The translations under genes and the position numbers were made by a program. 64,000 bases of DNA from Bacilli bacterium (GTDB lineage Bacteria; Bacillota_I; Bacilli_A; RFN20; CAG-826): contig JAZLMH010000023.1 of the NCBI GenBank assembly GCA_045598525.1, positions 10,004 through 74,003 of the forward strand. Reading direction: 5' to 3'. This document shows positions 37,130 to 59,752 of the stretch, one piece after another. The stretch's first letter is position 1; each line of letters starts with the position of its first letter. Under the pieces are notes generated by a model that had not been told where the DNA came from, ran no database searches, and saw nothing but the letters and a program-made list of their open reading frames with translations.

Positions 37130-37396
37130 AACTTTTCTCCTTGTTTCGCAATCATTAAATCAAGAATGGCAATTGCATACAAACAAGTAGGAATTGGATT
37201 TTTGTCAAGTGACGCTAGAAATAACGCAATAAGCAAAGCAAGCGTTATACAGCAAAAGCGATTTTTCCGATTTATATTGCCGAAAATACCGCAATATTGG
37301 TAAAATTAAATTGTGGATGAGGAGTAGCTTACTCGATTAATTCCGTCATCACAGGTTAAAGCCTCGGGATTAATAATCTAAATGATTTAGCAAGAT

Positions 37397-37426
37397 CACC
37401 ACTAACGTAAGTTGGTGGTTTTTATT
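37397..37426 (+). terminator. Terminator-like stem-loop plus T-run inside the 5' leader of the SPFH gene (possible attenuator)
   Basis: caccactaacgtaagttggtgg can form an ACCAC...GTGGT stem with an inner AAC/GTT pair. It is followed by tttttattt and lies 50 nt upstream of the AGGAGG RBS. Confidence 0.3.
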
Positions 37427-37475
37427 TATAAACAGCCTTCTTACGTATGGAAAGACGAAAGGAGGTATTTTGAAA

Positions 37476-38548
37476 TGATTAAAGCAATATTATTCGTTAT
37501 TTCCATTGCCGTTATTGGCGTTTGCATTGTAGTGCTTGGAATCACTACAAACAAAAAAACAAAAAAACAAGGAGGCAAGGCTCCAATAGTCGCCTCTTCT
37601 GTGCTCGCTGGAGCAGTTCTTTTCTCTCTTCTTGTCCCAGGTTCTTTCCACCAAGTTGAAGCAGGAACGTACGCCGTAGTAAAAGAACTTGGGAAGATCG
37701 TCGATGTCAGAACTCCAGGCACCTATTTCGATTTCTATATGCTTAGAACATATGACATTTATGACGCAACGGTGCAGCAAGTCAAAATAACCACTTCCGC
37801 TTATTCAAAAGACGGTCAGACAATGGATCTTGAGGTTTATCTCCAATACCAGATTCAATTAGACAAGCTCATAGTCAAAAACGAAAAAGGCGAAATAATC
37901 CAAACCGAAGGCATCGCTGGAAAATATGTCACAATCAGCTCACTTCAAGACCGCATCGAGACACAGTGCATTGAAAAGACTAAATCAGTTATGTCTAGCG
38001 CAGAAGCAATGACAATAATCCAAGATAGAGCCGTCTTCTCCGAATTAGTGTCAGTCACAGTTAGAGACGCCATCGGTCCAGACTATTACGTTAATGTCCA
38101 AGACGTTGTCTTAACAAACATCGACTTCACACCAGAATTCGAAAAATCAGTCGAAGATAAAGTCGTGGCAGAACAACAAAAGCAAGCTTCAATTACCAAA
38201 GCTGAAGCAGAACTCGAAGTTGCTAAAATCGAAGCACAAAAAGAGATTGAGGAAGCGAAAGGCAATGCTGAAGCACAATTAATCGCTGCAGAAGCTGCAG
38301 CAAAAGCAGCAACAGCAAAGATCATCGAGCTTGCTAGAACGGTTGGCTATGAAATCCAGGAGACCACAAACACAGAGGGAATAACAACATATAAGATCGT
38401 TATCCCAACAGGAGATGAAGCAAACTTCAAAAAGCTTGTTTTAGATTACCTTGAATATCTTGCGTACCTCGAACAATGGAATGGTGAGCTTCCAGAAGTC
38501 GTTGCAGGCGAAGATGCAATTAGCATCATCGTACCTGGAAACAACTAA
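37476..38548 (+). CDS. SPFH/band-7 (prohibitin/flotillin-like) membrane protein
   Basis: The start was revised to the ATG at 37476, which has AGGAGG 8 nt upstream; the track start 37412 lacks an RBS. It has an N-terminal TM, an SPFH core and a C-terminal Ala/Glu/Lys-rich coiled coil. Confidence 0.8.
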
Positions 38549-38614
38549 GAAAAATAGCAACTGTTACTGGTTTGCCTAAGTTGACCAAAACCTTTATTTG
38601 CATACAATATATGC

Positions 38615-39436
38615 ATGAACTTATTGGAGATTATCAAAAAATTCTTAGGCTTAATTGACGCAGAAAACGGCAACTATCTTGATTTAACTCATATTATTAT
38701 CGCTTCTATTGTAACTGTGGTTACCACTTTCCTCGGTTTCTATCTGGGGTTCAAAAACAGGAACAAAAGCGAAAAAGATAAAACTAAGCTTATACTTCCT
38801 TTCTCGATTGCGATGTGGATCTTAATGATTCTCCGTTTCATCATGATTGTTGTTAGAGGATATAACTTTGGAGAAAACGGGTTCATGAACCTTGTTGAGG
38901 GAAATCTTCCGCTTTTCTTATGTGACATCCAGTATTTTGCTCTTATTGCCATTTGCTTTGGGAAAGGCGAAACGAAGAAGATCGGATTAGATTTCTGTCT
39001 ATGTCTTGGGCTTCTTTCTTTCGCGATGGGCGTCTGGCTAAACGCAGGAACGTTTAGTAACAATCCATGGTGGTCTTCATGCTACTTCTATGAGATGGCG
39101 GTTCACGCAATCCCTGGAGGCATTTCGCTATACATCCTCGCGTCTAATATGACTTCGCTCAAATTCAAAGACATCTGGAAGACTCTTGCCGTTCTTCTCG
39201 TCTTTGAGATCGTTGCCCTCGTTTTTGATTACACGCTTAATTCAAACTACATGTTCTTTAAGAGAGACTCAGGCACACCGTTCTTCATCTTCACGGACCT
39301 AGCAAACGGAAATCAAATTCTCTATTCCTTCTTCGTTTGGTTAGGCATGACCTTATACGTTGCCTTATATTACGGAATTTGGGAATTAGTAATTTTCGTA
39401 TCAAATAAGGCAAAAAGACAACGCAAAACCAATTAA
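38615..39436 (+). CDS. Integral membrane protein with an LPLFLC motif; paralog of 30709..31434
   Basis: 273 aa and multi-TM. The shared LPL[HF]LC motif and similar hydropathy mark the two as paralogs. Confidence 0.5.
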   Translation: MNLLEIIKKFLGLIDAENGNYLDLTHIIIASIVTVVTTFLGFYLGFKNRNKSEKDKTKLILPFSIAMWILMILRFIMIVVRGYNFGENGFMNLVEGNLPLFLCDIQYFALIAICFGKGETKKIGLDFCLCLGLLSFAMGVWLNAGTFSNNPWWSSCYFYEMAVHAIPGGISLYILASNMTSLKFKDIWKTLAVLLVFEIVALVFDYTLNSNYMFFKRDSGTPFFIFTDLANGNQILYSFFVWLGMTLYVALYYGIWELVIFVSNKAKRQRKTN

Positions 39437-39525
39437 GAAGAGCCTCCTATAAATTGGAGGCTTTTAAGTTGCTTTTTTCCAAATACAATATTTATGTCGC
39501 GAATAGATGACAGGAGGTTAAAAAG

Positions 39526-41409
39526 ATGAAGAAAACCATATTAATCGCAAGCGCATTTGCGCTTCTTACCTTAACTGCTTGTGGAAATGTAGAAGCTTCT
39601 TCTTCACAAAAAGAACACGTTATTTTGGGTTCTCAAAACGAGACACAGTTAACATTCGAACAAAATTACATTGAAAGCGAAGTCCCATATCAAGCCGGTG
39701 CAAAATTCGCTCTTTCTATCTTTACCCATGTTGGTTCCATTTGTGCTGGTGTCGGCTTTAATTCTCCAGTAGCCGTTGTCAGTGGAGTGTTTGGAATCCT
39801 TAATACAATCAGTGACACTTTCTGTTCATCAAGCGCACCAACAACTAAAGACATAATGGACAAGCTCAATGAAATGGACACAAAGCTTGACGCAATAAAT
39901 GCGACCCTCAACGAAAACCATAATCAGCTTTTAAGCGAAACAGTTAGAACTCAAGCTATGGTCAGTCAGGTTCTTCTTGAAGAGCAAGAAAGTGCAATTT
40001 CTGACTTCTACACAACCCATGTGATGCCAATTGAGAATCAGCAAAGAGACTTTACAGATTATTTAGAGCAATCTCTTAAAACGTTTGTCTCTGCCCCACA
40101 AACCGTTTCATTCTACGTTCATAAAAACCAAGAAAACGTCTGGGCATATAATTCTTTATTGGATGTCGAATCCGCAAAAGAACTAGAAGTAACAATCAAT
40201 ATTGAGAAATTCGACCACACTTCAGAATTCTTAGAAAAGAACTTCAATACAGTAACAGAAGGTTTTATGGATAATCTTTTTAGAGACTTAGAAATCGGAG
40301 TTGGATCTGCAAGTCTCCCAGAAGGATTAAAAGCCAAAGACGCTACAAATTATTTAGCAGGCAATATCATCGAGGACATAACAAAAAAATACTACGTCGA
40401 ACAACATGATAAAGCTTTGAAGTTACGCAATGACGTTATCAATTATTCCAAAGCCATCTCTGGCAAGGCAGTCAAAAGCATCATCGATAGATACATAACA
40501 AGATTGAAATACATGTATAACTTCGAAGGCGAAATTAAAGAGACTGTCACAGATTTATTAAGCAACATGAAACAGGCTCTTAAAACCAATGCTGCCTTAG
40601 CTTCTCAAGCTTGTGCATACGCTAGTGTAAACCAAGATGAACTCAGAAGCGAATTCGTCGCTGCAGAGAACGCAATTAAAACAAAATTTGAAGCAGAAAA
40701 GGCTATCAAAGATGGTTATTGTTTCTTAACAGACACCATAATCGGAGGCGGTTTTTATAGAGGGCGTTTCGAAACAAGTTATAAAAACAAAGGAAACGAC
40801 TGCACATTCAAAGCAGAATTCAAACTAGACAAAGTTGTTAGCTGGTCTAAATCAACTGCTCTTAAAGAAGATGATATTACCAAACACAACTTCATCGACA
40901 GCGTTGACCATTTAAGAATCAGCTACAGAATGGGGTTGATGAGACAATTAGGCCTTGTTGAGCCAACAGCAAATTATATTGAGTACTTAGTCGGCACTGG
41001 AGCAATTCCAGAAGATGATTATGAGAACTTCAAAATACTTCGTGATGATAAATGGTTATCAAGCGACGCATTAAGATTCATCACAAATCTCACAACAAGA
41101 TCTATGAACGACGGAGATAAAGGATTCAGCCTCACATGTAATGAAGCGGGCAACCCAGATGGAGATTACTTCAATGTCGGATGGACTGGAACATTTAGAT
41201 CAAGTAGAACTTCTAGCTGCTGGAATGGAAATATTGCAGAAACAACATTCGTAGACGCAATTTCAGGCGAAATCCAAACAAACAAAAGAGTCGCTGCTTA
41301 TGCAACATATGCAGAGAGCCACTGGAATTGGATTAATGATGAGTATTGGTCCTTCGTTGATAATCCAGTAGGTAATTACTTCTTCGGGCTTGAACATATG
41401 GCTCAATAG
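39526..41409 (+). CDS. Lipoprotein, 627 aa, function unknown
   Basis: The signal has an LTAC lipobox and GGT/AGGAGG-like RBS (caggaggttaaaaag) lies upstream. No enzymatic motif was recognised. Confidence 0.5.
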   Translation: MKKTILIASAFALLTLTACGNVEASSSQKEHVILGSQNETQLTFEQNYIESEVPYQAGAKFALSIFTHVGSICAGVGFNSPVAVVSGVFGILNTISDTFCSSSAPTTKDIMDKLNEMDTKLDAINATLNENHNQLLSETVRTQAMVSQVLLEEQESAISDFYTTHVMPIENQQRDFTDYLEQSLKTFVSAPQTVSFYVHKNQENVWAYNSLLDVESAKELEVTINIEKFDHTSEFLEKNFNTVTEGFMDNLFRDLEIGVGSASLPEGLKAKDATNYLAGNIIEDITKKYYVEQHDKALKLRNDVINYSKAISGKAVKSIIDRYITRLKYMYNFEGEIKETVTDLLSNMKQALKTNAALASQACAYASVNQDELRSEFVAAENAIKTKFEAEKAIKDGYCFLTDTIIGGGFYRGRFETSYKNKGNDCTFKAEFKLDKVVSWSKSTALKEDDITKHNFIDSVDHLRISYRMGLMRQLGLVEPTANYIEYLVGTGAIPEDDYENFKILRDDKWLSSDALRFITNLTTRSMNDGDKGFSLTCNEAGNPDGDYFNVGWTGTFRSSRTSSCWNGNIAETTFVDAISGEIQTNKRVAAYATYAESHWNWINDEYWSFVDNPVGNYFFGLEHMAQ

Positions 41410-41443
41410 CAAAACAAAACGCCATCCCAGATAGGTTGGCGTG
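41410..41443 (-). terminator. Terminator between convergent genes, stronger on the minus strand
   Basis: An acgcca / tggcgt stem with a 12 nt loop is followed on the minus strand by UUUUGUUUUG. Confidence 0.45.
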
Positions 41444-41475
41444 TTCAATATCTTTAGATTCGTGTGATTTTATAA

Positions 41476-42633
41476 CTATTTTTTGATTATCGACACCAGT
41501 CTATTGACGTTATCTTCAGTCATCCCACCTTGAATAAGATATTCTTTAGCGGCTTCATCAAGTGATTTCTTGTTTGATGAGAACAATCTTTCCGATGGTC
41601 CTCTATCTCCAAGGAAGGAGCCGTCATGAGTTGGAGTGAGCAAGTTAATAAAGTCTTTGAAACGTAAGTCCACTATCGCATCGTACTTGTCTTTGGATTT
41701 CGTCTTGTTGATGCCGTAATAGTTGTCATACGTGATCATATAATCGTTTTCAAGTTCTTCATAAGATGCGCCAGATAACGCTTCTAATAAATAACAAACA
41801 AAGCCAGTCCTATCCTTGCCTTCGGTGCAATGAATGTAATAAGGGCTATCGTGTTTAACAAGCTCTGTAAGACCAATTGCTAATTTTTCTTGGAATACGC
41901 TGGATGTGAAATCAACGCCCATATCAAGAAGGGCAACGTTTCCTTCGTTATAAAGGTTTAATGAATATTGGGAATTAAATGATTCGCTAACAATGTACGA
42001 TTCCATTTCTTCTTGGCTATCAGCAAGATCGAGGACGAATTTAACCCCTGCTTCTTCAATAAGGTTATTTGCAAATGACGCTCTATTATGTTGGTTATCA
42101 ACTGGAGAAGCCCCTCTATAGAACAAATTGCTTTTCATAGTAGAAACTTCCATTGGTCTAAAGTTTGCAAACACTTCGTTAGTGGAATAGTCGTTTCTAT
42201 TGTCTGAATACTTTGTTGAGAAGGTTTCTTGCTCGACTAAATATTTTCCCTTTTCCTTGAGGGTTATGGTCATTTTATCTCCATCCTTCAATTCAAGGTT
42301 TTGATAACAATCCGCTTTGTTGTTTGTAGCAAAATCGATATAAGGGTATCCAGGATATCCAATTACAAGAGGTGCGCCAGCTTTAACGTAATATCCATCA
42401 TAAAAAGGTATATCTTCATATGAATAGCCGGTTGAAAAGGTGACATTAACGCTATCTCCAAAATCAAACCCTTTTCTCATGAATTCTTCGATTGTGAGAT
42501 CGCCATATACGGAATCGAATTTTGTTTCATGGATGACAGACATTTCTGCTGTTGCTGCCTTCGTGTTTGTGTTGCCACATCCAGCAAGAACAAACAGGGA
42601 TGTTGCGAAAGCGATAATTATTTTATGTTTCAT
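41476..42633 (-). CDS. Secreted lipoprotein with a C-terminal protein-tyrosine-phosphatase-like (CX5R) domain, PTP-like phytase / dual-specificity type
   Basis: 385 aa. The signal has an LAGC lipobox and the P-loop HCTEGKDRTG is present. Confidence 0.6.
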   Translation of the reverse strand: MKHKIIIAFATSLFVLAGCGNTNTKAATAEMSVIHETKFDSVYGDLTIEEFMRKGFDFGDSVNVTFSTGYSYEDIPFYDGYYVKAGAPLVIGYPGYPYIDFATNNKADCYQNLELKDGDKMTITLKEKGKYLVEQETFSTKYSDNRNDYSTNEVFANFRPMEVSTMKSNLFYRGASPVDNQHNRASFANNLIEEAGVKFVLDLADSQEEMESYIVSESFNSQYSLNLYNEGNVALLDMGVDFTSSVFQEKLAIGLTELVKHDSPYYIHCTEGKDRTGFVCYLLEALSGASYEELENDYMITYDNYYGINKTKSKDKYDAIVDLRFKDFINLLTPTHDGSFLGDRGPSERLFSSNKKSLDEAAKEYLIQGGMTEDNVNRLVSIIKK

Positions 42634-42706
42634 AATTTTAGCTAACCTCTACGCCGCTCATAATAAACTCAAAAGAGGCAAAAATAAACATAAGTTAAAA
42701 ACGCAT

Positions 42707-45700
42707 TTAACCTGGAAGACCAGCCAAGGCTTTTGAACGATCGCTAAATAACTTGAAGTCTTGCCTTGTTTCGCCATACGTCCAATATTTAATTGCGGTA
42801 TTAGCATTTGAAACATCGGCTTTGGTTTCAGCGTAATAATATACGGTGCAGTTCTTTTTAGAGTTGGCTGGGTAATGAACCGTTGCGTCATATTGGATGC
42901 CACCTGCGACATTTGGAACCTGATGGGAAGCTTGGCACGCTCTTTCGCCAACAAGCAAACTGCATGTTGGGAATATTTCTACATTAGGTAATGTGATTTT
43001 TGATATTTTTGTGGCGTCATTTCCTGTTGTGTCAGGAAGGTGGACATATTTGATTAATGAGCATTCTGTAAATGCCTTTTGACCAATGTGAGTAAGATTT
43101 GTTGAGTTTCTTAAATCGACAACACCATCTGTTTTGGTTGTAGGCTTAGGCAAGGTTGTGAGTGTTGGGTTCATATAATATCTGTAATCTGGTTGCGAAT
43201 CATTCATCTTTGATAAAACATTATCGCCAAAGAATGCATTCTCCCCTATCTCACGAATGCTTGTTAATTGGGTGAAATCAAAAGTGGTTAGAAGTTTGTT
43301 TCTCATAAACGCACCCTTTTGCGAGGCGCCATTATATGTGACGTTGTTTGTCATTGGATGGCTTGATTGCCACGCTTCAGGATCGCTTGAATCTAAATGA
43401 GGACCGTTAATGTATTTTAAGCCAGACAAATCGCCTTTAATTTCTGTAAGAAGAGGATTTGCCGCAACACCATAACCATAAATTGTTGTTAATGAGCTTG
43501 GGATTGTAACTGATGTTGCAGCAGTACCAAAAATACCTTCAGCGTTAATGTATTTAGTACCTGGTTCAATTACAAAATTACCAGTTGTCTGTTTTTGAAT
43601 GGTGTATAAGAGGCCAACATGGTTGCCATTCTCATCATAATACAAGGTGTCCCCTACCCAAGAAGTGTTATTAAGGGTGAATCCTGTTTTATCAAAATAT
43701 TCAATCTTTGAACTAACTGTGTGTCCTGTTGTGGATGATGTGATCTTTGCCATGGTCGAGAAAGAAGAAACATCAAAAGTCGTCATCGCTGAATCAGTAG
43801 ACACGCTTACAAAACCGTTATTAAAGAATGCGAATTTTCCAACTTTTGTGCATGATGCTGGGAGTCTACAATATGCAGATTGGCCATTAGGATCTTGTTG
43901 GATGACATCCCCTACTTTATAAGTAAGAACAGTAAGAACTGTACTTGGCAAAGATCCGCCAGAATCATATGTTGAGAAGAACGATCTATCGCCAATCTCC
44001 TCTAATGTATCCGGCAAATATACTTTTTGTATGCCTTTTCCACCAAACACAAAGTCGCCAATCCTTTTAATTGGGGTAGGCGTATTTAGGGTTGTCAAAT
44101 CGATGGTCGTTTGAGAGCCAAAGTATTGTGTGATAGTCGTTCCGCCGTTTTCCTGAATCGTAGCAAATTTGCCGTTGTCATAATACGTAACGCCTGTTTC
44201 TAAATCATCTAATACGTATAATGGGCAAGGTCCTGCGCTGTTTTCAGAGTTTGTTGGTTTGACGTTCGAGTTGGTTGATTCTTGTAAGTAACCAGACTCA
44301 GGGTTTAACCAACTTTTATCTGCTGGTTCTCTGTCTGTGTATACGACAACCGAGTTATGGCCTAATAATGTTTTTTCCCATCCAAAGCTAGAGGATGTAT
44401 TGAACCTAAGGTTAAGGAAAATTTCCTGAAGGTTTGTTCCTGAGAAAACGCTGTTTTTGAACGTCTTTAAACAAGAGCTGCTTCTAAAACTCTTTAGGTT
44501 GGCACAGCCATAAAAAGCTTTGTCGTTAAAAGATATCTGAGACATATTGTCATTGGTTAGCCCATGAACGCCATGTTGGCATTCCGTCATTACCACTTTT
44601 TCAATCGATAAGGCATTAAGGAACGCAGAGTTACCTACGGCATAATTGCCACTACCTCCAGCCAAAGAAGCGGTACCATCATTTAAAGAACAAGGTAATT
44701 CTAAAGTGAATTTGGAAGTTGCGTCCTTCCCTAAATTCTCAAAACAGTTGTTACCAATATCGACAAGAGAACAATCAGCAGTTGGGTCTGTTTTAAAAGA
44801 AAGATAGCTGACTTTGTATAAGTTTTTAAAGCAGGAACTCCAGAAATAAGTGAGTGAATTTGGAAGTATCAATTCTTCCATCTTATTGTTTCCATCGTCT
44901 CCAAACTGATACCAGCCAATTTCTTTTAATTCAGTACAGTTTTCATACCTTAACTGCTAAATATTAGAGCATCCTCTATAAGCGCTATACCAAACTCTGA
45001 CCAAGCTGCTGTTATGAATAATGCCCTTTAATTCTTTGTGTCCATCAAACGCTCTAGGACCAATAACGGCCAATGGATACATCTTGTTGGTTTTTTCATC
45101 ATAAACATAATCAGGCAATGTGATTATTTGGTTATGCATGAAGCCCTCAACGTCTTCTGTTTCCGTGCGGTCATACGAAATCAACGTTGCGTAGTCGTAG
45201 TTTGTTTTCCAGTTTGTTTTTCCTGACTCTGATTTAATTGTGGCTTTTTGTGAAAATGAGCAAAGCAGGCCTGGGCACTGATTGATGCTTGCGACATTAA
45301 CAACGTTATAAATAACGTCAATTTGCTTTGTGCTAGAGGTCCCAGAGTACAAGTAGTTGTAATAAGACCCAAATTTTGAAGGTTTGCTTGATGCTTGAAT
45401 GCTGATTGTCAAGTTATCACATTGCGTGAAAGCAAAATTCTCAATACATGTAACATTCTTTGGGATAAAGAACGATGTAAGGTTGCCACATTTAGAGAAT
45501 GCGTATGATCTTACTGTGATAGGGTTGTTTGGCAAAAATATGTATGGAAGTGCGTAGCAGTTTTCAAAAGCGCAGTTGCCAATTTCTAATATTGCTTGAG
45601 GGATTGTGAATCTTTTGAGTTTATAACATGATGCAAAAGCGTTGTTCTCAATGATTGTGATCTTGTTATTGATCGAGTCTTCGGGAAGGCCTTCATGAGC

Positions 45701-46177
45701 GTATTTAACGGATTCAAGGTTTCTACAGTCCATGAATGTAGCGCATTGGATTGAAGTAATGTTTTCTGGCAATGTTACTTCTTTTAAATTTACGCAGCAC
45801 ATGAATGCTTCAGGCTTAATTTCATCAATAGAGTTTGGAATATCTATTGCGGAGAAATCGCAATTTGAAAAACCGCCCGTAGAAATGCATTTGACTGTAT
45901 ACACATTTCCTTCAAACGAAAGAGATGAAGGGAGAGAAAGATGGGATGGAGTTGTGCTTCTGTCGTCGTTTGCCCAACCAACGGAAATAGACCCAGGATT
46001 ATTCTCTAGAGTTTTGCATGTATATTGATAACCATTAGAGTCGGTAGCGACAAATGAACTTTCTTCGTTTTCGATATAATAGGCAGCAAGGGCAAAAATG
46101 TTCTGAACATTTAAAACAATGAGGCCAAACAAAGCGACCGCTAATGTAATTATTTTTTGAAAAGTCTTCTTTTTCAT
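42707..46177 (-). pseudogene. BspA-type leucine-rich-repeat surface protein (~1155 aa) interrupted by a single in-frame TAG at 44957..44959
   Basis: The ORFs 44957..46177 (406 aa, with signal peptide) and 42707..44881 (724 aa, no signal, starting mid-repeat) are in the same frame. The 75 nt between them reads through as ...GCSNI*QLRYENCTELKEIGWYQFGDDGNNKMEELILPNSL..., continuing the LRR_5-type periodicity (IxxxAFxxCxxL). Confidence 0.6.
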
Positions 46178-46179
46178 TG

Positions 46180-49129
46180 CTATGCCCCTCCCCTATAACT
46201 GTTTCCTTTTTTCTGATACGTCGCGTTTAGAATGTGCGGCGCGTTATCTATTACGTAATAAGGCAAAACCTTTTTGTCTAAAATGAGCAAGAAATCAACA
46301 AAATTATTAGACGTTTCGTCAAATATAAGTTTCAAATAACCTTCATCGGAATTTGCAATGAACGACCCGTCTGCGATATTAAACTCAATGGTCATAGAGA
46401 CTTCTGAGAACTGAAGCTCCTGCCTTGAATAAACCAAAGGATCGTTCAATACGAAATCAACGTTTGCAATGGAGTTATCCATAAGTGGTCTATTGCTTGA
46501 GCCGATTGTGCCATCGTTTTGACCTTGGGCCGCCAAAAAGTAAATGTTTGCCGTTCCATTAGCAGCGCCAATGCAATATTCCCCTTGAGGTAATTTAAAG
46601 ATGTGAGCAAACAATCTTCCTGATCTTGTTAAGGTTTCAGGATTAACAACCGTTCTGTCGACAGCTTTGGTGTCTGTTGTGCCAGTTGCTGCGTCATATC
46701 TAAAATACCTACACATGTCGTTGCCTGCACCATTGTTGTGATACAAGTATTGATAAGTTGATTCGCTTGAGTGCATCGTGTACTTTTTTGTGAATGTTGA
46801 GTCGGGCGTGCTTGAATCAAACCCATAAATAGAAATGTCGTCTTTGTTGCCAATAACTGAGACGTTTGCGCCATTAGGGTTTTCAATTTTAAAAAGATAG
46901 CGTTTGATGGGTAATAAAGTTGCTGATCACCTGAAGTAAAGGCGAATTTTGTTTTAGGTATACCTACTGGCATGTACGAGGATAAGCCGTTTAAAATCTC
47001 GTTCTCACTGCTTCTTAACATGAAGCCAAATCTTTGTGTTCCAGGATTGATTGAAGAGCCATATTTATCGATCAACGTGTTCGAAAAATAGTTGGTTAAG
47101 AAAGAACTTTTAGTGTTATAGAAGAAGTTATTGCCGTGAGTGTTGCCGATATCAGCGATATTCATTTCGTAGATATAGTCAAAGTCTCTTTGGTAAAGAG
47201 GCGAGAACGTATTTACTGAACTCCAGTTTGGTTCAGCTCCAATATTGTCTAACTGGTTGTCTGAGGTATTCCATTTGTAATTTACGCCAAATTTTGTGTG
47301 GTCAATCTCGGCGGTTGAATAATAAACCTTTGTCTTAGGTGTCATCTCATTGATGATTTTGCTTGTGCCAATGCCATCAAGATAAAATTCGCCAATGTTT
47401 TCTGGCGTAATGATGTTATCGCTATGGCCGGTTGTTATTTTGAAAACGCCAAGACCTCTATCCTTTCCTTCTTCGTCAGAAATGACTTTGTTATTCGCAA
47501 AATCGACGGTGTTTACTTCTGAGTAATACTCTTTTGTGACTGTGAATGAGCCTGTTTTTGTTTGGTCTTTGCTTATTTTTGTAATGTAATGCTGAGGAAC
47601 GGCTGCGTCCTGACGTAAATATTCGCTATATAAGCCTTCATAATCCTTTATTTTGTCGTCATACATGATGTATGAGTGCTTTGTGCTTTCGTGGTAGCCA
47701 AAAGTAGCTGTAGTAGTTTGGTTGACCTCATAGTTGTCTCTGATAACGCCGTAAACTTTAGAGAAGTTCATGACACCTGTTTCGCCATGGAGCTGCAAAG
47801 AAATGTCGGGTGATATATCGTTTAAAACGCTTGTGCCGATTTCACCAATCAACCCTGTTTGTGATTCACTCTTAACTGCAGTCAAATCGCTGCTATTTAA
47901 GTTTAGAGCGCCATTATATAGGTAACAGTTATTGAGACTGCCATCAACATGGCCCGCAATATACCCAACGTTCGTACCGTGATGGTAGTTAGTGAAATCG
48001 CCTGCGACAAAATCACAATAAAGTGTCATGCTGTAGTTGCCTTCATCATAGGTTGAGCCATTGGAATTGATGCGGCATAAATATGTTTGAACAACCCTTG
48101 AATAGACATAGCCGTCAACAGTTATAGAAGCGATTAAAGACAGTCTTGTGTCAATATAGACATCTTCTGTGTTGAATTCTTCATAGTCTTTGAGCCTTGA
48201 GAAATTGACGAACGCTCTTTCTTCGCCATTCACTTCGCGTTTTTCTAACAACGTGGTAGAGAATCTCCAGTGATAATTAAACGCGGTGTCGTTAGGGTGA
48301 TATTCGGTGAAGTAAAAATCAGAATATTCAACTTCTTCTATCGTGTTTATATGATCATTGGAATTGATGCGTGAATACGATGTTGCGCCCAAACCATTAG
48401 GATTCTTTAATTCAATTGACGCTCCATCATATGAAAGTTTGAGGCCACCATCTTTAGCAAAACGTTCTGTTTCTGCGGCAAAAATGTCATCTACTTCGCT
48501 ACCAAACAATTGATCAACATTGCTGTTTCTTGAATCGTATCCCGTTGAATTAACTGTGAGGTCTTTAAATATAACGTTTTCTACCGATGCGTTAGAAGCA
48601 ACATAGCCAAAGACGCCAATATCTTCTGGATAACCTGTTATTTCAAGATTTGTGATTGGAATGTTATGGCCGTCAAAGTCTCCATAGAAAGGCGCGCTTT
48701 CACCCCCAATAGGTGGAAGTTCAATACCGCTCATTGAAGACATATCTAAATATTTTGTTAATTCTGTTTCACCATTATCACGAGGTATTATGCACTGGTA
48801 TCCTTCTGATTCACTGAAAACATGGCCAACCGTGAAATATGTTTTCTTTTCGAAAACCCCAAGGTTCTGAAGTCTTGTTAAGTTATAAAAGTGAATTGGG
48901 AAACGATTTCATAAGGGTTCTCTTGTGTGCCATTTCCATCATAGAAATAACTTCTTAAGCCAACCTCGCCACCAACAACTTGATCTTTCTCAACCGTTGG
49001 AACAGCTACGATAAACCACGCGAAAGTGCCAACTGCAATAGCGGCTGTTGAAAGCAAAGACAGGAATCCTATGACCAATGTTCTTAACTTGTTATTAGAC
49101 ACCATAACCAAACCTAAAAATATAGTCAT
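46180..49129 (-). pseudogene. Degraded paralog of the 17184..21206 giant protein, split into 3 ORFs by two frameshifts
   Basis: ORF 48878..49129 has the SipW-like signal VGTFAWF and NPYEIV. The frame switches at the plus-strand aaaa run at 48887..48890; the shifted frame gives FYNLTRLQNLGVF...LPPIGGESAPFYGDFDGHNIPITNLE, matching YNLAWLQEMGKF...LPPIGTPEYPFIGNFNGAGHTISGLK. A second shift near 46890..46930 restores ...IKRYLFKIENPNG, matching NNKLRIDPTN. The C-terminal ORF 46180..46776 matches the C-terminal region of the giant protein (GEYCIGAANGT... vs GEYAIASTPNS...). Confidence 0.65.
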
Positions 49130-49967
49130 CCACTACCGCAAGATTCTCTAAGCGGACCGTATCAACGAAAGAAGCGAGAACCTGCATGTTGTAATTAACG
49201 TTTATATAAACCGTTGTGACCATGTCCTCATCCACGTCACAATCGCCATTATATAAAGTGAACTCTTCTATAGAATCGTCGCTAAAGAAGTTCATATGGG
49301 TTGTTGATTCAAGGGAAGAAAGATAACTGAGCTTATGGTAAACAGTCTCGTCTTCAGTCATTACCTTGCTTTGTTGCATATATGATGGGTAATAGTGTTT
49401 ATGCCCGTTATCTTCTAAAAGCTCGGATGTTAAATCTCCCTCTAAAAAGATATTAAAATCTAAGCAAGAGGACGCTTTGATTTCTTTTTCATGCAAACCG
49501 ACTGCTCTAAGCATTGTATCCACTTTGAGTTTTGCGCTTCCGCCAGTGAACTTGATTTTGCATTCGTAAATAATGTTTGTATTCATTGAAAGCAAAGGGC
49601 TGTGGTTAATTAAATAATCAACAGGGTCATATACGTTCATTTTGGCGTCACGTTCCTCAAATACATCATTTTCAAAAACACCAAACTTTGCTTGCTCTTC
49701 GTTATATGTGTATTTATGTACTTCTCCATTTTGTGGGGAAAGGTAGTCTACATAAGAATCATCCTCACCAATAGAAACAGAAGGATAAACAAACTTATAA
49801 ACATTTAATCCGATTAGCTCATTAGAGTCTGTATTGGCAACAGCAAAAGTCATGCCCGATACAGCTGCTTGTCTGTTTGCTGAAAACCACGCTAAAGAGC
49901 TGGTTGCTAGAGCTGCGGCTGAAGCGATAAAAACAAAAATAGAGCATGCGACTTGTTTACGGATCAT
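49095..49967 (-). CDS. Secreted ~290 aa protein with a SipW-cognate-like signal; paralog of 16345..17187 and intact
   Basis: It starts MIRKQVACSIFVFIASAAALATSSLAWFSANRQ. It overlaps the start of the downstream pseudogene, and its TAA stop lies inside the next gene's first codons. Confidence 0.5.
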   Translation of the reverse strand: MIRKQVACSIFVFIASAAALATSSLAWFSANRQAAVSGMTFAVANTDSNELIGLNVYKFVYPSVSIGEDDSYVDYLSPQNGEVHKYTYNEEQAKFGVFENDVFEERDAKMNVYDPVDYLINHSPLLSMNTNIIYECKIKFTGGSAKLKVDTMLRAVGLHEKEIKASSCLDFNIFLEGDLTSELLEDNGHKHYYPSYMQQSKVMTEDETVYHKLSYLSSLESTTHMNFFSDDSIEEFTLYNGDCDVDEDMVTTVYINVNYNMQVLASFVDTVRLENLAVVDDYIFRFGYGV

Positions 49968-49975
49968 TGGTTCCT

Positions 49976-50047
49976 ATCTGTAGCTGGCTGCCTTTTAGGG
50001 CCCTATAGCTTTGCGTCGCCCGATTTCTCGAGTTTTGCTCTTTAAGA
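49976..50047 (-). promoter_or_regulatory. Second GEMM / c-di-GMP-I-like riboswitch on the minus strand, upstream of the locus-2 cassette
   Basis: The minus-strand RNA reads UUAAAGAGCAAAACUCGAGAAAUCGGGCGACGCAAAGCUAUAGGGCCCUAAAAGGCAGCCAGCUACAG. It aligns position for position with the locus-1 element (GCAAAAC; GNRA hairpin CUCGA-GAAA-UCGGG; GGCGACGCAAAGC; GGCAGCCAG). It abuts the RBS AUAGGAACCAAUG of the 290 aa gene. Confidence 0.6.
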
Positions 50048-50054
50048 TGCGCAC

Positions 50055-50090
50055 ATTATATTCGCGTGCGTACGTAAAGTAAATAATTTG
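50055..50090 (-). promoter_or_regulatory. Candidate promoter for the locus-2 riboswitch/cassette (TATAAT at plus 50055..50060 on minus, with a weak -35)
   Basis: The minus strand reads gaaTATAATgtgcgcatcTTAAAG, spaced like the locus-1 promoter/riboswitch junction. The -35 is poor (TTTACT). Confidence 0.3.
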
Positions 50091-50399
50091 TGTGCGGTTT
50101 CATATTTCTTATGCAGTCTTGAATTTTATAAAAGCCAAGGTTTATTCGGATATTTTCGCAACATTTTGTTAAAACTAAATTCATAAGAAAAATTGATACA
50201 AAAAATACAGTCACTTCAATTTATGTGGTTGCCCATCACGTTGAGCCTTGCTTTCTATATACCGGTGGTTTTATGGGCCGATCAATTTACCATCATCGGA
50301 ATGCTTATGCTTCCGAAAACAATTATGTATATGTGAGCTATTTGGATGGGGTATTGGGAAGCAAGAAAACCTGAAATCAAATAAACTAAAAGTGAACGT

Positions 50400-53787: not shown

Positions 53788-54444
53788 TTATTTTTCTAAA
53801 TTCCAAACTGTGGCAATATCCATTTCAATAATGGAAATGTCATCAACTGTAAGCGTTAAATTGAATGTGGCATTCATAACATCGCCTTTGACTTTAATAC
53901 TGGAATCGGTAAGCGAGGATCCAATTGATTTAGTATCTCCGTTAAGGTATGTAAATTTTCCAGAAGTAACAACATAATCAACATAATTGACATCGTATGA
54001 AATTGGATCAATCTTCATGGAATAGAATTTAACGTTTTCGCGTTCTTTTGTGTAAACGCATAAGGAATTGACTGGGTCTACTTCATTCTCTCCAACTTTT
54101 TCGAAATCCGATTTATGTGTGTAATTAACGGATTTTGGAGAGATAGATTTGCCGTTATATGTTCCTGCAGGGTTCATTTCATTTGATAAAAGTAATCCGC
54201 CTAAGTTTCCAAAAGAATTTGAGGTATATACGTTCTTAACGCGTTCTTTAATAGCCTCTTCGGTGCCTAATCCGATTTCTTCAAAAGAAGAGAGATCTTC
54301 AACCGTTCCTACTTTGTATGCGATTGTCTCTGACTCAAGCAAGAACTTTTGAGACTTTTCATTGGTGCCACATGCGGATAATGTTGCTAAAGCAGCTAAA
54401 GATAACATTGAAATGGCTAATATGTTTAATTTTGAGTTTTTCAT
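53788..54444 (-). CDS. Lipoprotein, 218 aa, function unknown
   Basis: The signal has an LSAC lipobox. Confidence 0.5.
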   Translation of the reverse strand: MKNSKLNILAISMLSLAALATLSACGTNEKSQKFLLESETIAYKVGTVEDLSSFEEIGLGTEEAIKERVKNVYTSNSFGNLGGLLLSNEMNPAGTYNGKSISPKSVNYTHKSDFEKVGENEVDPVNSLCVYTKERENVKFYSMKIDPISYDVNYVDYVVTSGKFTYLNGDTKSIGSSLTDSSIKVKGDVMNATFNLTLTVDDISIIEMDIATVWNLEK

Positions 54445-54689: not shown

Positions 54690-54823
54690 TGTTTCTATAG
54701 TCTGTTATCCGCTATAGGTCTGAGCAATCTTCTGCGTATTATAGATACTTGTCTAACTTTGTTCTGAGAGAGATTTGTTTTGTTCTATTCAGATAAATTA
54801 GATTTGTTCTATTACAACATCAA

Positions 54824-55054
54824 TTATCTCTGACCAACTTCAGGAAGTAAGCCCATAAGGCGTGCGTTCTTGATAGCTTTTGCGAGTTGTCTCTGATACT
54901 TTGCGCTTGTACCTGTTGAGCTGCGTGCAAGGATCTTTCCATCAGGTGTGATGAATCTCTGAAGGAGTTCTGTATCCTTGTAATCAATGTATTTAACGTG
55001 GTTCTTGGTGAAGTAGCAGACCTTTCTCTTTGGTCTCATTTTCTTGAAAGCCAT
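54824..55054 (-). CDS. rpsR: 30S ribosomal protein S18
   Basis: 76 aa. The S18 core YIDYKD...[37 protein letters not shown] is conserved. Confidence 0.9.
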
Positions 55055-55083
55055 TGTTAATTTTTCCTTTCTCTATGAAATTT

Positions 55084-55536
55084 TTAGAATGGGAGGTCGT
55101 CATCGACGACATCAAGCCCATCCAAGTTTCCGCTTGCTGATGTGTTGACTTGTGAATAGCTTGGCTGTGGTTCAACCTGACGGAAGCCAGGTTCAGCTGA
55201 AACACTTGCTCCTGCAGCCTTTGGTTCTAAGAAGTCAACATTGTCAGCGATGGTTTCGATGACAGTAACTTGAACGTTGTCTTTGTTGGTGTATTTGCGT
55301 TGGTTGAGTCTACCAGAAACAGCCACTAATGAGCCTTTTCTAACAAACTTTGCAACGTTATCGGCTTTGTTACCGAAGATTGAGCAGCCCATGAATAAGG
55401 TGTTTTTCTCACCGTTTGGGCCTTTGAATGAATCATCAACTGCTACAGTGAAGGAAGCTACTGATAGTCCTGCTGCAGTTTTACGTAACTCTGGGTCACG
55501 GGTCAAACGACCAATAAGAATGACGTGGTTAAGCAT
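55084..55536 (-). CDS. ssb: Single-stranded DNA-binding protein
   Basis: 150 aa with an OB-fold N-terminus (MLNHVILIGRLTRDPELR), a Gly/Ser/Gln-rich linker and the acidic C-terminal tail DDDLPF. Confidence 0.9.
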   Translation of the reverse strand: MLNHVILIGRLTRDPELRKTAAGLSVASFTVAVDDSFKGPNGEKNTLFMGCSIFGNKADNVAKFVRKGSLVAVSGRLNQRKYTNKDNVQVTVIETIADNVDFLEPKAAGASVSAEPGFRQVEPQPSYSQVNTSASGNLDGLDVVDDDLPF

Positions 55537-55569
55537 TGTTTACCATCCTCCAATTAATTGTGTTGTCTA

Positions 55570-55866
55570 TTAGTCTTGAGCAACAGTAACTAAATGACGG
55601 AGTACATTTTGATTGAGCTTTGCCAAACGGTCGAACTCATCAAGAGCTGGTTTGTCAGCGTTGACTTTGAGGATAACGTAGTATCCTTTGGTCTGTTTCT
55701 TGATGATGCTGGCGAAGTCTTTGAGGCCCCACTCCTTGGTGTCGAGCACCTGTGCCTTGTTATTTTCAAGGATTCCATGGAGTTTGGCGATTTCAGCCTT
55801 ACGTGCTTCTTCTTCAAGAGCAGCTGTAAGGATGTACATGATTTCGTACTTTTTCATGATTAGCAC
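55570..55866 (-). CDS. rpsF: 30S ribosomal protein S6
   Basis: 98 aa starting MKKYEIMYIL, in the classic rpsF-ssb-rpsR order. AGGAGGTG sits 8 nt upstream. Confidence 0.9.
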   Translation of the reverse strand: MLIMKKYEIMYILTAALEEEARKAEIAKLHGILENNKAQVLDTKEWGLKDFASIIKKQTKGYYVILKVNADKPALDEFDRLAKLNQNVLRHLVTVAQD

Positions 55867-55952
55867 CTCCTAGTTTTGGTCTAAGGACCACATCATTAAT
55901 TGTGTGGCCATAGAAGAATGTGTGCTTCGTTTCCTTCTACGAAGCCCAAACA

Positions 55953-55980
55953 TAATACTACGGCACTATCTCTTAATCAA
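55953..55980 (-). promoter_or_regulatory. Candidate sigma-A promoter for the rpsF operon (TTGATT-17-TATTAT on minus)
   Basis: The hexamers were read from the reverse complement. A GCTTCG...CGAAGC hairpin lies in the 5' UTR between the promoter and the RBS. Confidence 0.35.
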
Positions 55981-56087
55981 TTAAGAGTTGTCCTTTTGTA
56001 AATTTTTATTCGTCTTGAGACGTATATCTCTGTGTAGATATTTGCCTTCAATTACTTATACTGGACGAAATAAAAAATGTTTGAAAA

Positions 56088-56127
56088 TTGCAATAAAAAA
56101 TAAAAATACGCGGTTTTTGCCGCGTAT
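56088..56127 (-). terminator. Rho-independent terminator after lysS
   Basis: An 8 bp atacgcgg / ccgcgtat stem is followed on the minus strand by UUUUUAUUUUUUAUU. Confidence 0.6.
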
Positions 56128-56151
56128 TTTAAAGTGTTTTTGGTTTGAAAA

Positions 56152-57684
56152 TTACTCTTTGTCGTCTTTCTTAACCACTGCAACTTCGTCTTTCATTGTT
56201 GGGAAGAGAAGAACTTCACGGATTGTTGATTCTTCCGCGAAAAGCATGCAAAGACGGTCAATGCCAACACCAATACCGCCAGCTGGAGGCATACCATAAA
56301 TAAGAGCATCAAGGAATGTAAAGTCGATATCTGCAGCTTCGTCGTCGCCTCTTTCACGAGCAGCTAATTGAGCCTTGAATCTTTCTTCCTGATCGAATGG
56401 GTTATTGAGTTCACTGTATGCATTACCAAATTCAGTTCCTGCAATGAAGAGTTCGAAGCGATCAACAAAACGTGGATCGGCTGTCTTTTTGGTTAATGGA
56501 GATACTTCGATTGGGTATGTGTGAATAAAGGTTGGTTGGATAAGGGTTGGCTCGACGAGTTCATCAAAGAATGCTTGCATAATGTAGCCTGTGCTATTCC
56601 ATGACTGTTGAAGAGGAACGTTGTGTTCTTTTGCAAGCTTAACAGCTTCTTCAAATGGAATTTCCTGGTTGAAGTCGATACCACACTTTTCTTTAATTGC
56701 GTCCGCCATGCTGATTGCAGCAAATGGTTTTGAGACATCAATCTGGTGACCGTTCCATTCAAAGACATCTTTATGCATAACGTTCTCAGCAATATAGTGG
56801 AACAAGCCTTCGCACCAGAGTTTCATATCGGAGAGGTCACCATATGCCTGATAGAGCTCAATTGTTGTGAATTCTGGGTTATGTCTATTGTCCATGCCCT
56901 CATTTCTGAAGATACGTCCAATTTCATAGACGCGGTCAATACCGCCGACCATGCATTTCTTAAGATTTAATTCGGTAGCAATGCGGAGGAAGAAATCTTT
57001 ATCTAAAGTATTGTGATGCGTGATAAAAGGACGAGCGGAAGCACCACCAGCGATTGGAGAAAGGACTGGAGTTTCGACTTCCACAAACCCGAGGCTGTCA
57101 CAATAGTTTCTAACACCTTTGATGATAGACGCTCTTGTTAATGCGTTCTTACGTGATTTGTCATTGATGATAAGATCGACATAACGGTGACGGCATCTCT
57201 CTTCAATGTCGGTTAAACCATGGAATTTTTCTGGAAGAGGTTTAAGACATTTTGTGATGTGAGTGTATTTAGAAACACGAATTGTTAATTCGCCTGTTCT
57301 TGTAACCATTAAGTGTCCTTCAAGACCAACGATGTCTCCTAAATCAGCGAGTTTGAAAACTTCATAATCGTGTTCGCCGATAACATTCATGCCAATCCAT
57401 GCCTGCATGTTTCCATACTCATCTTTGATGTTAACGAAACTTGCTTTGCCCATGCGGCGGATAGCCATAAGACGTCCAGCAACATTAACTTTAACTTCTT
57501 TAGCTGGATATAAATCAGCTTCGCCTAATCCCGCATATTTTTCGCGGAGATCTTTAATCTGATCTTTCCACTCGTAACGTGACCCAAATGGATCGACACC
57601 TAATTCTTCATAGCGAGCGAGCTTGTTACGACGAGCTAACTCTTGGTCATTTAATTTCTCTTCTTCCATGGTTGTTCCTCCCAC
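56152..57684 (-). CDS. lysS: Lysyl-tRNA synthetase, class II
   Basis: 510 aa with an N-terminal anticodon-binding OB domain, class II motifs 1 to 3 (for example GGIGVGIDRLCMLF) and a FRNEG motif. The true start is probably the ATG of MEEEKLN. Confidence 0.95.
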   Translation of the reverse strand: MGGTTMEEEKLNDQELARRNKLARYEELGVDPFGSRYEWKDQIKDLREKYAGLGEADLYPAKEVKVNVAGRLMAIRRMGKASFVNIKDEYGNMQAWIGMNVIGEHDYEVFKLADLGDIVGLEGHLMVTRTGELTIRVSKYTHITKCLKPLPEKFHGLTDIEERCRHRYVDLIINDKSRKNALTRASIIKGVRNYCDSLGFVEVETPVLSPIAGGASARPFITHHNTLDKDFFLRIATELNLKKCMVGGIDRVYEIGRIFRNEGMDNRHNPEFTTIELYQAYGDLSDMKLWCEGLFHYIAENVMHKDVFEWNGHQIDVSKPFAAISMADAIKEKCGIDFNQEIPFEEAVKLAKEHNVPLQQSWNSTGYIMQAFFDELVEPTLIQPTFIHTYPIEVSPLTKKTADPRFVDRFELFIAGTEFGNAYSELNNPFDQEERFKAQLAARERGDDEAADIDFTFLDALIYGMPPAGGIGVGIDRLCMLFAEESTIREVLLFPTMKDEVAVVKKDDKE

Positions 57685-57718
57685 AAAGTGTAGTGATAGT
57701 TTAATACATTAAATTGCT

Positions 57719-59752
57719 TTATTCACTAGCGACCGTATCTGTAGAGATAGTGTTGCCAGTATAAAGCTGATAATATTTGCCTTTTTGTTTAAGTAATTGT
57801 TCATGGTTTCCACGTTCAATTACCTTGCCGTTTTCAAGAACCATAATAACGTCGCTATTCTTGATTGTGGACAAACGGTGAGCGATGACAAAGACCGTGC
57901 GCCCCTTCATGATTGCATCCATTCCCTGCTGAACGAGAGCTTCCGTACGGCTATCGATTGATGATGTTGCTTCATCAAGAATCATAACCGGTGGGTTAGC
58001 TACAGCAGCACGGGCAATAGCGATAAGCTGTCTTTGTCCTTGGGAAAGAGACGCCCCACCTGCAGTTAAAACCGTGTCATAGCCGTTTGGCAAATGAGTA
58101 ATGAAGTTGTGGGCGTTGGCAAGCTTTGCGGCGCTGATGACCTCTTCGTCTGTTGCTTCTAAATTACCGAAACGGATGTTCTCCATAACTGTTCCAGTGA
58201 ATAGTTTCGTTTCTTGTAAAACGATGCCTAATGACCTACGTAAATCTTTCTTTTTTATTTTATTAATGTTGATTTCATCATATCTAACTTTGCCATCTTC
58301 GATATCATAGAAACGATTAATAAGATTAGTGATGGTCGTTTTTCCCGCCCCTGTTGGGCCAACGAAAGCAATCTTTTGACCAGGGTTTGCATACATTGTC
58401 ACGTTGTGTAAAACAATCTTTCCTGGAACGTATCCAAAATCAACGTCGTCAAATGTGATTTGTCCCTTTAACCATCTATATGTTGTCTTAGACCCGTCGG
58501 TGTGAGGATGTTTCCAAGCCCACTTCCCTGTTCTCTCTTTGCATTCAACAGGGTCGCCATTTTCGTCTTCTGTCGCGTTAACGAGTTCAACATATCCATC
58601 GTCTGTTTCTTTTGGTTCATCGATAATGTCAAAGATTCTTGTAGCGCCGGCTAAAGCAAGAGCGATTAAGTTTAGTTGCTGAGACACTTGCCCGATTGGC
58701 TGAACAAACGATTTAGAATACATAAGAAAGCTGACAATAACGCCAATTGAAGCTGCACTATAAACAAAGCTTCCGGTTAAAGAAAGGCCAGCCCATTGAT
58801 TTGCAATTGCAATAGAACCTATTAAGGCGATTAAGACGTATTGAATGTTACCGACTTGATTTACGGTTGGCATAAGCAAATTAGCGTACTTGTTTGCTTT
58901 GACGGAATAATTAAAGAACTGATCGTTGTGCGCCTTGAAGCCTTCAATATTTCTATCTTCGTAGTTAAACACTTTAACAACGCGCTGTCCTTTTGTTAAT
59001 TCTTCTATATAGCCATTCATTTTTCCTAACTCAATTTGCTGTGCAACGAAGAATCTAGCACTCATTCTTGTGAAGAAGAAAATTATAAAGAAGATGAGTA
59101 TCGCTACTAATAAAACAACAGCAGTAAGCATAAAGTCAGTCAAAAGCATCATGACCAAACAAACAATCATGGTTACAATGGAGTTGGATATCATTGGAAT
59201 CGCCCTAGAAAGCATTTCGCGGAGCGCGTCTACATCGTTTGTGTAGACGGACATGATGTCGCCATGGCCTCTTCTATCAAAATAAGAAATAGGAAGATCC
59301 TGCATATGGTCAAAGAGTTCATCACGAATCTTTTTTTGGACCCCTTGTCCGATAACAGACATCAAAACGTTATAAATATAAAGGCAAATAATGCCAACCG
59401 CATAAATCGCCCCCATAACTGCAAGAGCCACGCCAAACGGAACACCAGCTACCAAACCTGTCGTAGGCGTCAATAATGTCATCGACCCAGCCTCAACAGA
59501 TGGGGTAATGTATTCATTAACGACAATTTGGCCCACAAACGCCGATCCTAAAACATTAGAACCGCTAGATGCGAGTATACAAATAAGAACCACGAAAAAC
59601 TGTAATGGATAATATTTAAAAATATACTTAAGGAGTCTTCCGACTGCGGCCATCTTGGCTTTTCCAGATACCTTGTTCATGTTCCTACCTTTAATTGGCG
59701 GCATCGAAATCACCTCCTCCATTCTGAGAATCAAAGAGTTCTTTATAAACAA
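57719..59752 (-). CDS. ABC exporter, fused permease/ATPase half-transporter (multidrug/lipid type), partner B
   Basis: 677 aa with 6 TM, Walker A GPTGAGKTT, the signature LSQGQRQ and Walker B ILDEATS. Its 5' end overlaps the upstream gene by 62 nt, so the real start is probably the internal Met (MPPIKG or MNKVSG). Confidence 0.85.
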   Translation of the reverse strand: MFIKNSLILRMEEVISMPPIKGRNMNKVSGKAKMAAVGRLLKYIFKYYPLQFFVVLICILASSGSNVLGSAFVGQIVVNEYITPSVEAGSMTLLTPTTGLVAGVPFGVALAVMGAIYAVGIICLYIYNVLMSVIGQGVQKKIRDELFDHMQDLPISYFDRRGHGDIMSVYTNDVDALREMLSRAIPMISNSIVTMIVCLVMMLLTDFMLTAVVLLVAILIFFIIFFFTRMSARFFVAQQIELGKMNGYIEELTKGQRVVKVFNYEDRNIEGFKAHNDQFFNYSVKANKYANLLMPTVNQVGNIQYVLIALIGSIAIANQWAGLSLTGSFVYSAASIGVIVSFLMYSKSFVQPIGQVSQQLNLIALALAGATRIFDIIDEPKETDDGYVELVNATEDENGDPVECKERTGKWAWKHPHTDGSKTTYRWLKGQITFDDVDFGYVPGKIVLHNVTMYANPGQKIAFVGPTGAGKTTITNLINRFYDIEDGKVRYDEININKIKKKDLRRSLGIVLQETKLFTGTVMENIRFGNLEATDEEVISAAKLANAHNFITHLPNGYDTVLTAGGASLSQGQRQLIAIARAAVANPPVMILDEATSSIDSRTEALVQQGMDAIMKGRTVFVIAHRLSTIKNSDVIMVLENGKVIERGNHEQLLKQKGKYYQLYTGNTISTDTVASE

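Follow-up and report, generated by a model that had tools for sequence, protein, structure and literature searches.

Disrupted reading frames in bacterial genomes are known from several settings. Ordinary pseudogenes have a broken open reading frame (ORF) in a transcription unit hit by several independent small lesions, and the remainder still resembles its orthologues. In phase-variable genes of surface proteins the frameshifts touch mononucleotide runs, and such contingency loci use runs of ~7-8 nucleotides (nt) or more, or multi-copy repeats. The dnaX gene and insertion sequence (IS) elements are known for -1 frameshifting at slippery sequences. Lastly, it was described in passages of two studies that homopolymer-derived indels fragment genes in long-read assemblies (PMC9262707, PMC12007338). 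Here we describe a gene on the minus strand of a 64,000-nt stretch of DNA, hereafter the window (GenBank assembly GCA_045598525.1, contig JAZLMH010000023.1, positions 10,004 to 74,003), from an uncultured gut Bacilli lineage whose closest relatives are metagenome-assembled genomes (MAGs) from horse faeces. The gene would encode a surface protein of 975 amino acids (aa) and is interrupted by two frameshifts. It is the middle gene of an operon of three, the last of which codes for a BspA-type leucine-rich repeat (LRR) protein and is interrupted by a stop codon.

Like ordinary pseudogenes, the 975-aa gene combines a disrupted frame, more than one small lesion in its transcription unit and an orthologue-like remainder. 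It differs from them in that its ratio of nonsynonymous to synonymous substitution rates (dN/dS) is not yet relaxed, in that its family consists of uncharacterised surface proteins, and in that the lesions are known from the assembly alone. The likeness to the indel errors, so far as those passages describe them, lies in deletions beside homopolymers that split a gene intact in relatives, whereas here the lesions are clustered in one operon, lie off the longest homopolymers and include a nonsense substitution. We put the probability that the operon has genuinely and very recently decayed, and that the 975-aa gene is now a pseudogene, at roughly 0.6; no recoding or switching mechanism is involved.

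Two frameshifts in a 975-aa gene

The reading frames of the gene, taken from a three-frame translation of 46100..49200, and the sites at which they change are given below in window positions.

46180..49105, minus strand: the disrupted gene, 975 aa once a base is put back at both lesion sites
ATG 49105 (or 49129) to TAA 48878..48880, minus strand: frame 1
46629..48743, minus strand: frame 2, the 704-aa ORF
46180..46776, minus strand: frame 3, the 198-aa ORF, with its stop at 46180..46182
48898..48900, minus strand: lesion 1, from alignment to relatives, one nt lost within or beside a C3 run (plus strand GGG), between Ser69 and Pro70
48878..48880, minus strand: premature TAA reached in the original frame past lesion 1, cutting the product to ~75 aa
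48887..48890, minus strand: A4 run (T4 on the coding strand), not a lesion; relatives are in frame here, with CAC TTT TAT or CAT TTT TAT
46891..46896, minus strand: lesion 2, from alignment, loss of a G where 46896 (C) meets 46895 (T), directly before the T5 run 46891..46895
46629..46894, minus strand: end of the 704-aa ORF that is out of frame, ~89 codons of Q/T-rich nonsense, with its stop at 46629..46631

There is an 11-nt overlap between the start of the gene at ATG 49105 and the stop of the 290-aa gene before it; a second candidate ATG lies further upstream, at 49129. Both frame changes are of -1, with one base missing at each, and they do not compensate for one another. Once repaired, the product was 95% identical over 100% of its length (E=0) to P0001, the intact 975-aa protein of a MAG named 'Bacilli bacterium' (GCA_024408345.1). 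The repaired product was searched against 5.8 billion proteins; more than 100 further homologues are single ORFs of ~960-1050 aa, and the homologue alignment (A1) holds 105 sequences. Comparison DNA was drawn from ten independent assemblies of close relatives (L001, L002 and L013-L020), representing at least nine samples, with L003 and L004, at 68-69% aa identity the only two outgroups found in a genome-contig scan. In each of the ten relatives the alignment to the window showed exactly two indel columns over 2,928 aligned positions, at 91.9-92.8% nt identity, and both columns are 1-nt gaps on the window side.

The frame is disrupted relative to the orthologues intact in these ten close relatives and in the more than 100 homologues, and it is confirmed that the window carries one gene broken by two frameshifts. 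A preliminary description of this DNA had already proposed that a single minus-strand gene changes frame twice, and the three-frame translation, the orthologues and the two 1-nt gaps bear this out. The intact gene codes for 975 aa, as in the orthologues, and not for about 1340 aa.

At lesion 1 the window reads GTTTC-CCAATT (in its longer context GAAATCGTTTC-CCAATTCAC), as compared with GTCTCACCAATC, GTTTCCCCGATT in L013 and GTTTCTCCGATT in L014. Codon by codon, the relatives have GTC TCA CCA ATC CAT, GTT TCC CCG ATT CAC (L013) and GTT TCT CCG ATT CAC (L014). A contraction of C4 to C3 would be the simplest history of this lesion, since L013, locally the most similar allele, carries C4. It was previously suggested that this frameshift lies in the A4 run at 48887..48890; our alignments place it in the C3 run, ~10 nt (8-13 nt) upstream. 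PIHFYNL is found in the -1 frame before the T4 run is reached, SPIHFYNL is conserved among homologues, and in the 105-sequence alignment Y74 and N75 are invariant and conservation of P70 and H72 is 90% or higher. Inserting one base into the A4/T4 run does restore the frame, as was claimed, but gives QFT in place of the conserved PIH. Length polymorphism of the A-run, which the same description had proposed looking for, was not seen among the ten relatives, as no indel-type variation occurs at 48887..48890 and the difference between T4 and T5 is a synonymous C/T substitution. The ~75-aa product that ends at the premature TAA comprises the transmembrane helix and a short tail.

A homopolymer in a gene for a surface protein naturally raises the question of phase variation, in which slipped-strand mispairing at a contingency locus would turn the protein on and off. 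The protein is a predicted surface protein with an N-terminal transmembrane helix and beta-rich domains, its neighbour is of the BspA type, and both deletions touch short homopolymers. However, the tracts measure just 3 nt (C3) and 5 nt (T5), and no homopolymer in the operon reaches 7 nt. The ten relatives read TCACCA, TCCCCG or TCTCCG at the first site and GTTTTC at the second, with neither repeat expansion nor indel polymorphism, and restoration would need two independent +1 events together with reversion of the nonsense codon. Phase variation, one of the explanations offered earlier, was rejected because of the short runs, the lack of length polymorphism in relatives and the three reversions required, and we regard it as most improbable.

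Lesion 2 falls within the interval 46890..46930 in which a second shift had been suspected, at the junction of 46896 and 46895. All relatives here read ATY GTT TTC AAA ATT, as compared with ATC -TT TTT AAA ATT in the window; the sequence with the G restored is ATCGTTTT. As was noted before, the 704-aa frame ends in Q/T-rich nonsense while another frame continues the gene; the nonsense spans ~89 codons, and the other frame is that of the 198-aa ORF. The homology to a 1340-aa paralogue elsewhere in the window, said to run across both shifts, does cross lesion 1, but across lesion 2 it reaches only E=1.2. The alignment put forward for this region, IKRYLFKIENPNG with NNKLRIDPTN, is not what BLAST finds; the patch of E=1.2 lies at paralogue residues 1134-1170. 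It is the orthologues, and not the paralogue, that establish the second shift.

The deletion at lesion 2 also creates a canonical slippery heptamer, T_TTA_AAA, in the incoming frame (46887..46895). None of the relatives has it; their sequence here is GTTTTCAAAA. A tandem slip on it would give AIFLKIENPNG, where orthologues have AIVFKIENPNG, and would continue into the 975-aa product, with the junction peptide ...YYPSNAIFLKIENPNG....

Programmed or leaky -1 frameshifting at both sites, on T_TTA_AAA at site 2 and by a P-site slip on the T4 run at site 1, would be akin to that of dnaX and IS elements. Both shifts are of -1, the heptamer follows the pattern X_XXY_YYZ in the incoming frame and a slip there yields the full product, and on the T4 run a slip of tRNA-Phe from UUU to UUU is possible, 10 nt downstream of the site defined by homology. 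However, a shift is found neither in the ten close relatives nor in any of the more than 100 homologues, so that no evolved feature is involved. The homology-defined site 1 has no slippery sequence, and the downstream RNA folds are insignificant (z = -0.84, -0.17, +0.84 and -0.91). Furthermore, two sequential events of low efficiency would leave a negligible yield, and a TAG in the next gene would stay unexplained. The heptamer is regarded as a by-product of losing the G before TTTTYAAAA. Programmed frameshifting was rejected as an evolved feature on account of the unshifted orthologues, the lack of a stimulator structure and a first site that is not slippery. Frameshifting at both sites is scarcely credible, and there is a small chance of leaky read-through at lesion 2 only.

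Recent decay or a fault of the assembly

The third lesion, which the preliminary description did not mention, is found in the gene directly downstream.

42707..46177, minus strand: BspA-type LRR gene, 1156 aa in relatives, here split into 406 aa and 724 aa
44957..44959, minus strand: nonsense codon TAG, in frame within the LRR gene, GAG (Glu) in 5 of the 5 relatives compared

The LRR gene has no indels with respect to its relatives, each of which has a single 1156-aa ORF. TAG is an ordinary stop in the window, and reassignment of this codon was rejected, as TAG terminates 8 of the 47 window ORFs, the broken gene included.

If the operon has decayed, three independent point lesions would have knocked out its middle and last genes. 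Lesion 1 would stop translation after ~75 codons, so that the protein is lost and translation uncoupled, and polarity from this lesion would probably lower expression of the downstream LRR gene. The later lesions, if they arose in this order, would then have been neutral.

The distribution of the lesions speaks for decay. All three lie within the 6,397 nt of the two broken genes. In the other 44 ORFs, which span 52,636 nt, nothing points to disruption; full-length Pfam domains are present in 20 of them, and genes on either side of the operon are as long as in relatives. Were errors uniform, the chance of such clustering would be (6397/59033)^3 = 0.0013, or 0.012 conditional on the first lesion. 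The 44 intact ORFs contain 256 homopolymers of at least 5 nt, 57 of at least 6 nt and ten of 7 nt, and at all of these the frame is unbroken; the two broken genes have no run of 7 nt or more. Homopolymer error in long reads is disfavoured, since such errors would hit long runs and be spread along the contig, and this was not seen: the lesions are at a C3 run, at a G before a T5 run and at a G>T substitution.

Selection on the two genes gives a different picture. By the Nei-Gojobori method, with the window compared with L001, dN/dS of the 975-aa gene was 0.06 as a whole, 0.14 before lesion 1, 0.055 between the lesions and 0.05 after lesion 2; for the LRR gene it was 0.076 as a whole, 0.083 before the stop and 0.073 after it. 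Several observations here and elsewhere weigh against decay. No signature of relaxed constraint is found in the dN/dS of either broken gene. With L003 and L004 as outgroups, lineage-specific aa changes are balanced, at 16 in the window and 14 in L001 for the 975-aa gene, and at 20 and 23, respectively, for the LRR gene. Lesions aside, both genes look fully functional by sequence, which is what an assembly artefact would also give. Each frameshift comes from the loss of a single base within or next to a short homopolymer, a typical class of error, and in a cluster look-up of the protein collection the window proteins each occur on one NCBI contig only, of 180,408 nt.

Attempts to find a second assembly of the same strain gave the same outcome. 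Exact look-ups of the 704-aa, 290-aa, 701-aa (P0125) and 406-aa products returned none, a search through ribosomal protein S18 found other lineages only, at no more than 96.9% identity, and a search in the metagenomes of the Joint Genome Institute (JGI) gave no match.

By estimate, the test for relaxed selection has low power for events younger than ~0.3% of neutral divergence, which it would miss. For the 975-aa gene to be a pseudogene, the absence of relaxed selection is compatible only with very recent inactivation. Judged by sequence divergence, the lesions would be either very young or artefactual, because essentially all of the divergence has accumulated under strong purifying selection.

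The main rival to decay is an artefact of assembly, consensus or polishing, with both genes intact in the organism and the three lesions introduced locally, and we hold it to be a real if rather less likely explanation. Low coverage is one possible cause, and mis-polishing by cross-mapped reads of a co-occurring relative with an operon ~90% identical is another. An artefact would agree with the dN/dS values of 0.05-0.08, the lack of acceleration in this lineage and the intact genes of all ten relatives, as well as with the position of both single-base deletions beside short homopolymers. The source of the window occurs once, its nearest relatives are MAGs and it is probably a MAG itself, and contigs of relatives in other samples have, by their names, a coverage of only 2.5-3x. 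Operon similarity above that of the flanks (synonymous divergence, dS, of 0.38-0.63 vs 0.76-1.34) would favour cross-mapping at this very place. On the other hand, the errors would have to cluster, with three in 6.4 kb and none in 52.6 kb (P ~0.001 if uniform), while sparing 57 homopolymers of at least 6 nt. In addition, one of the lesions is a stop-creating G>T substitution without an indel, and allele switching in the assembly graph makes no indels, because the relatives have none here.

Decay and sequencing or assembly error had both been offered as explanations from the start, and both are viable; decay is favoured by the clustering, by the substitution among the lesions and by the lack of a long homopolymer. 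We infer that the lesions are probably present in cells rather than only in the assembly.

The encoded protein and its distant paralogue

The 975-aa protein had no match in Pfam or NCBIfam and no PDB relative by sequence. Its membership of a family is supported by full-length homology, by an N-terminal W30-F31 that is invariant in the 105 homologues and by the motif PYEIVSPxHFYNLTRLQNLG, and the family is an uncharacterised one of ~975-1000-aa membrane-anchored proteins of gut Bacilli, without a Pfam model. For the intact orthologue, an AlphaFold2 model based on the 105-sequence alignment had a mean pLDDT (predicted local distance difference test) of 84 and a pTM (predicted template modelling score) of 0.66. 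In this model residues 4-34 form a transmembrane helix at the N-terminus, and beta-rich domains come after it.

Searched with Foldseek against the PDB, the model had no match at E<1e-3, and only weak similarities to jelly-roll or carbohydrate-binding module (CBM)-like folds were obtained. Against BFVD, ~140 aa of the model superposed on a phage protein annotated as 'putative immunoglobulin A1 protease' (probability 1.0, root-mean-square deviation 2.5 A, 142 columns, 27% identity); this part is presumably the N-terminal module. The superposition gives the protein some likeness to 'IgA1 protease' or GLUG-like proteins with such a module. It is unlike them in having no Pfam, NCBIfam or PDB relative and no identified protease motif. 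The likeness to BspA-type LRR adhesins comes by way of the neighbouring gene, the two halves of which match Pfam LRR_5 (PF13306) at E=8e-38 and 3e-24 (129.6 and 85.7 bits vs a gathering cut-off of 27.7). Given the features of the model, the superposition on the phage protein and the LRR neighbour, the 975-aa protein is probably exposed at the surface, with an adhesive or binding function.

An intact and distant paralogue is found in the same window, at what we call locus 1.

16345..22753, plus strand: locus 1, with genes for 280, 1340 and 516 aa and overlapping stop/start junctions
17184..21206, plus strand: 1340-aa paralogue gene, of which the N-terminal ~147 aa are homologous to the broken gene

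By BLAST, the 1340-aa protein is 31% identical to the repaired product over 147 aa (E=2e-9), at the N-terminus only. The proposal that the broken gene is a redundant copy finds little to stand on, as the paralogue shares only this module. Several proteins of ~1300-1450 aa are among the search matches, which makes locus 1 a member in its own right of a larger family, as yet uncharacterised. The small proteins of the two loci match at E=0.002 over 44 aa, and the third gene of locus 1 has a lipoprotein-like N-terminus and no LRRs.

An N-terminal hydrophobic helix ending in A-W-F was seen in the broken gene (49015..49025), in the 290-aa gene (49880..49890) and in the 280-aa gene of locus 1 (16400..16440), and in the 1340-aa paralogue (17270..17280) the helix ends in A-W-I. 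This shared helix could be a processing or sorting signal. The idea that these AWF N-termini are signal peptides of the SipW/TasA type found no NCBIfam model even at E<=10.

The operon, its neighbourhood and its probable loss

The first gene of the operon is intact.

49095..49967, minus strand: upstream 290-aa gene, with an N-terminal hydrophobic helix ending in LAWF

Only eight homologues of the 290-aa protein were found, and its AlphaFold2 model, with a pLDDT of 42, was unusable. The order of genes for 290, 975 and 1156 aa is conserved in L001, L003, L004 and L013-L019. In the comparison with L001, the operon region (42707..50142), which has the lower dS values given above, is ~90% identical in nt, and the flanks (37323..42693 and 54805..59347) are 79-87% identical. 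As the operon is far closer to L001 than the flanking genes are, the sequences suggest that it was exchanged between lineages later than the genomes diverged. Relatives have a gene of 216-218 aa between the LRR gene and a tyrosine-phosphatase gene, where the window has only 74 nt (42634..42706); a 69%-identical copy of this gene is found ~11 kb away, beside rpsR (53788..54444). The region from rpsR to the operon differs in gene content from L001, so that the neighbourhood is a variable one.

The protein collection holds gene fragments as separate proteins, without product names. The gene calls of the window stored in it include P0125 (701 aa, the 704-aa ORF minus 3 residues), P0128, P0134, P0135 and P0140. 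For annotation, the fragments of 83, 704 and 198 aa together with those of 406 and 724 aa from the LRR gene represent two disrupted genes and not five proteins, and the proposal of a homopolymer switch should not be propagated.

The phenomenon is an ordinary one: an operon for surface proteins that was inactivated very recently or, with lower probability, an error of assembly at this place. Should the lesions be artefacts, they would show that a public assembly is of doubtful quality in this region. There is also an outside chance that the lesions are real and that loss of the surface operon was selected in one population of gut Bacilli, for example as an escape from a phage that uses it as receptor or from host antibody, maybe with residual read-through at T_TTA_AAA; the operon would then have lost its function by adaptation and not by neutral decay. 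Provided that the lesions are real, a conserved surface-protein operon of three genes, kept under strong purifying selection in every sampled relative, has only just been lost from one strain, and this would add a small data point on the turnover of surface structures in gut bacteria.

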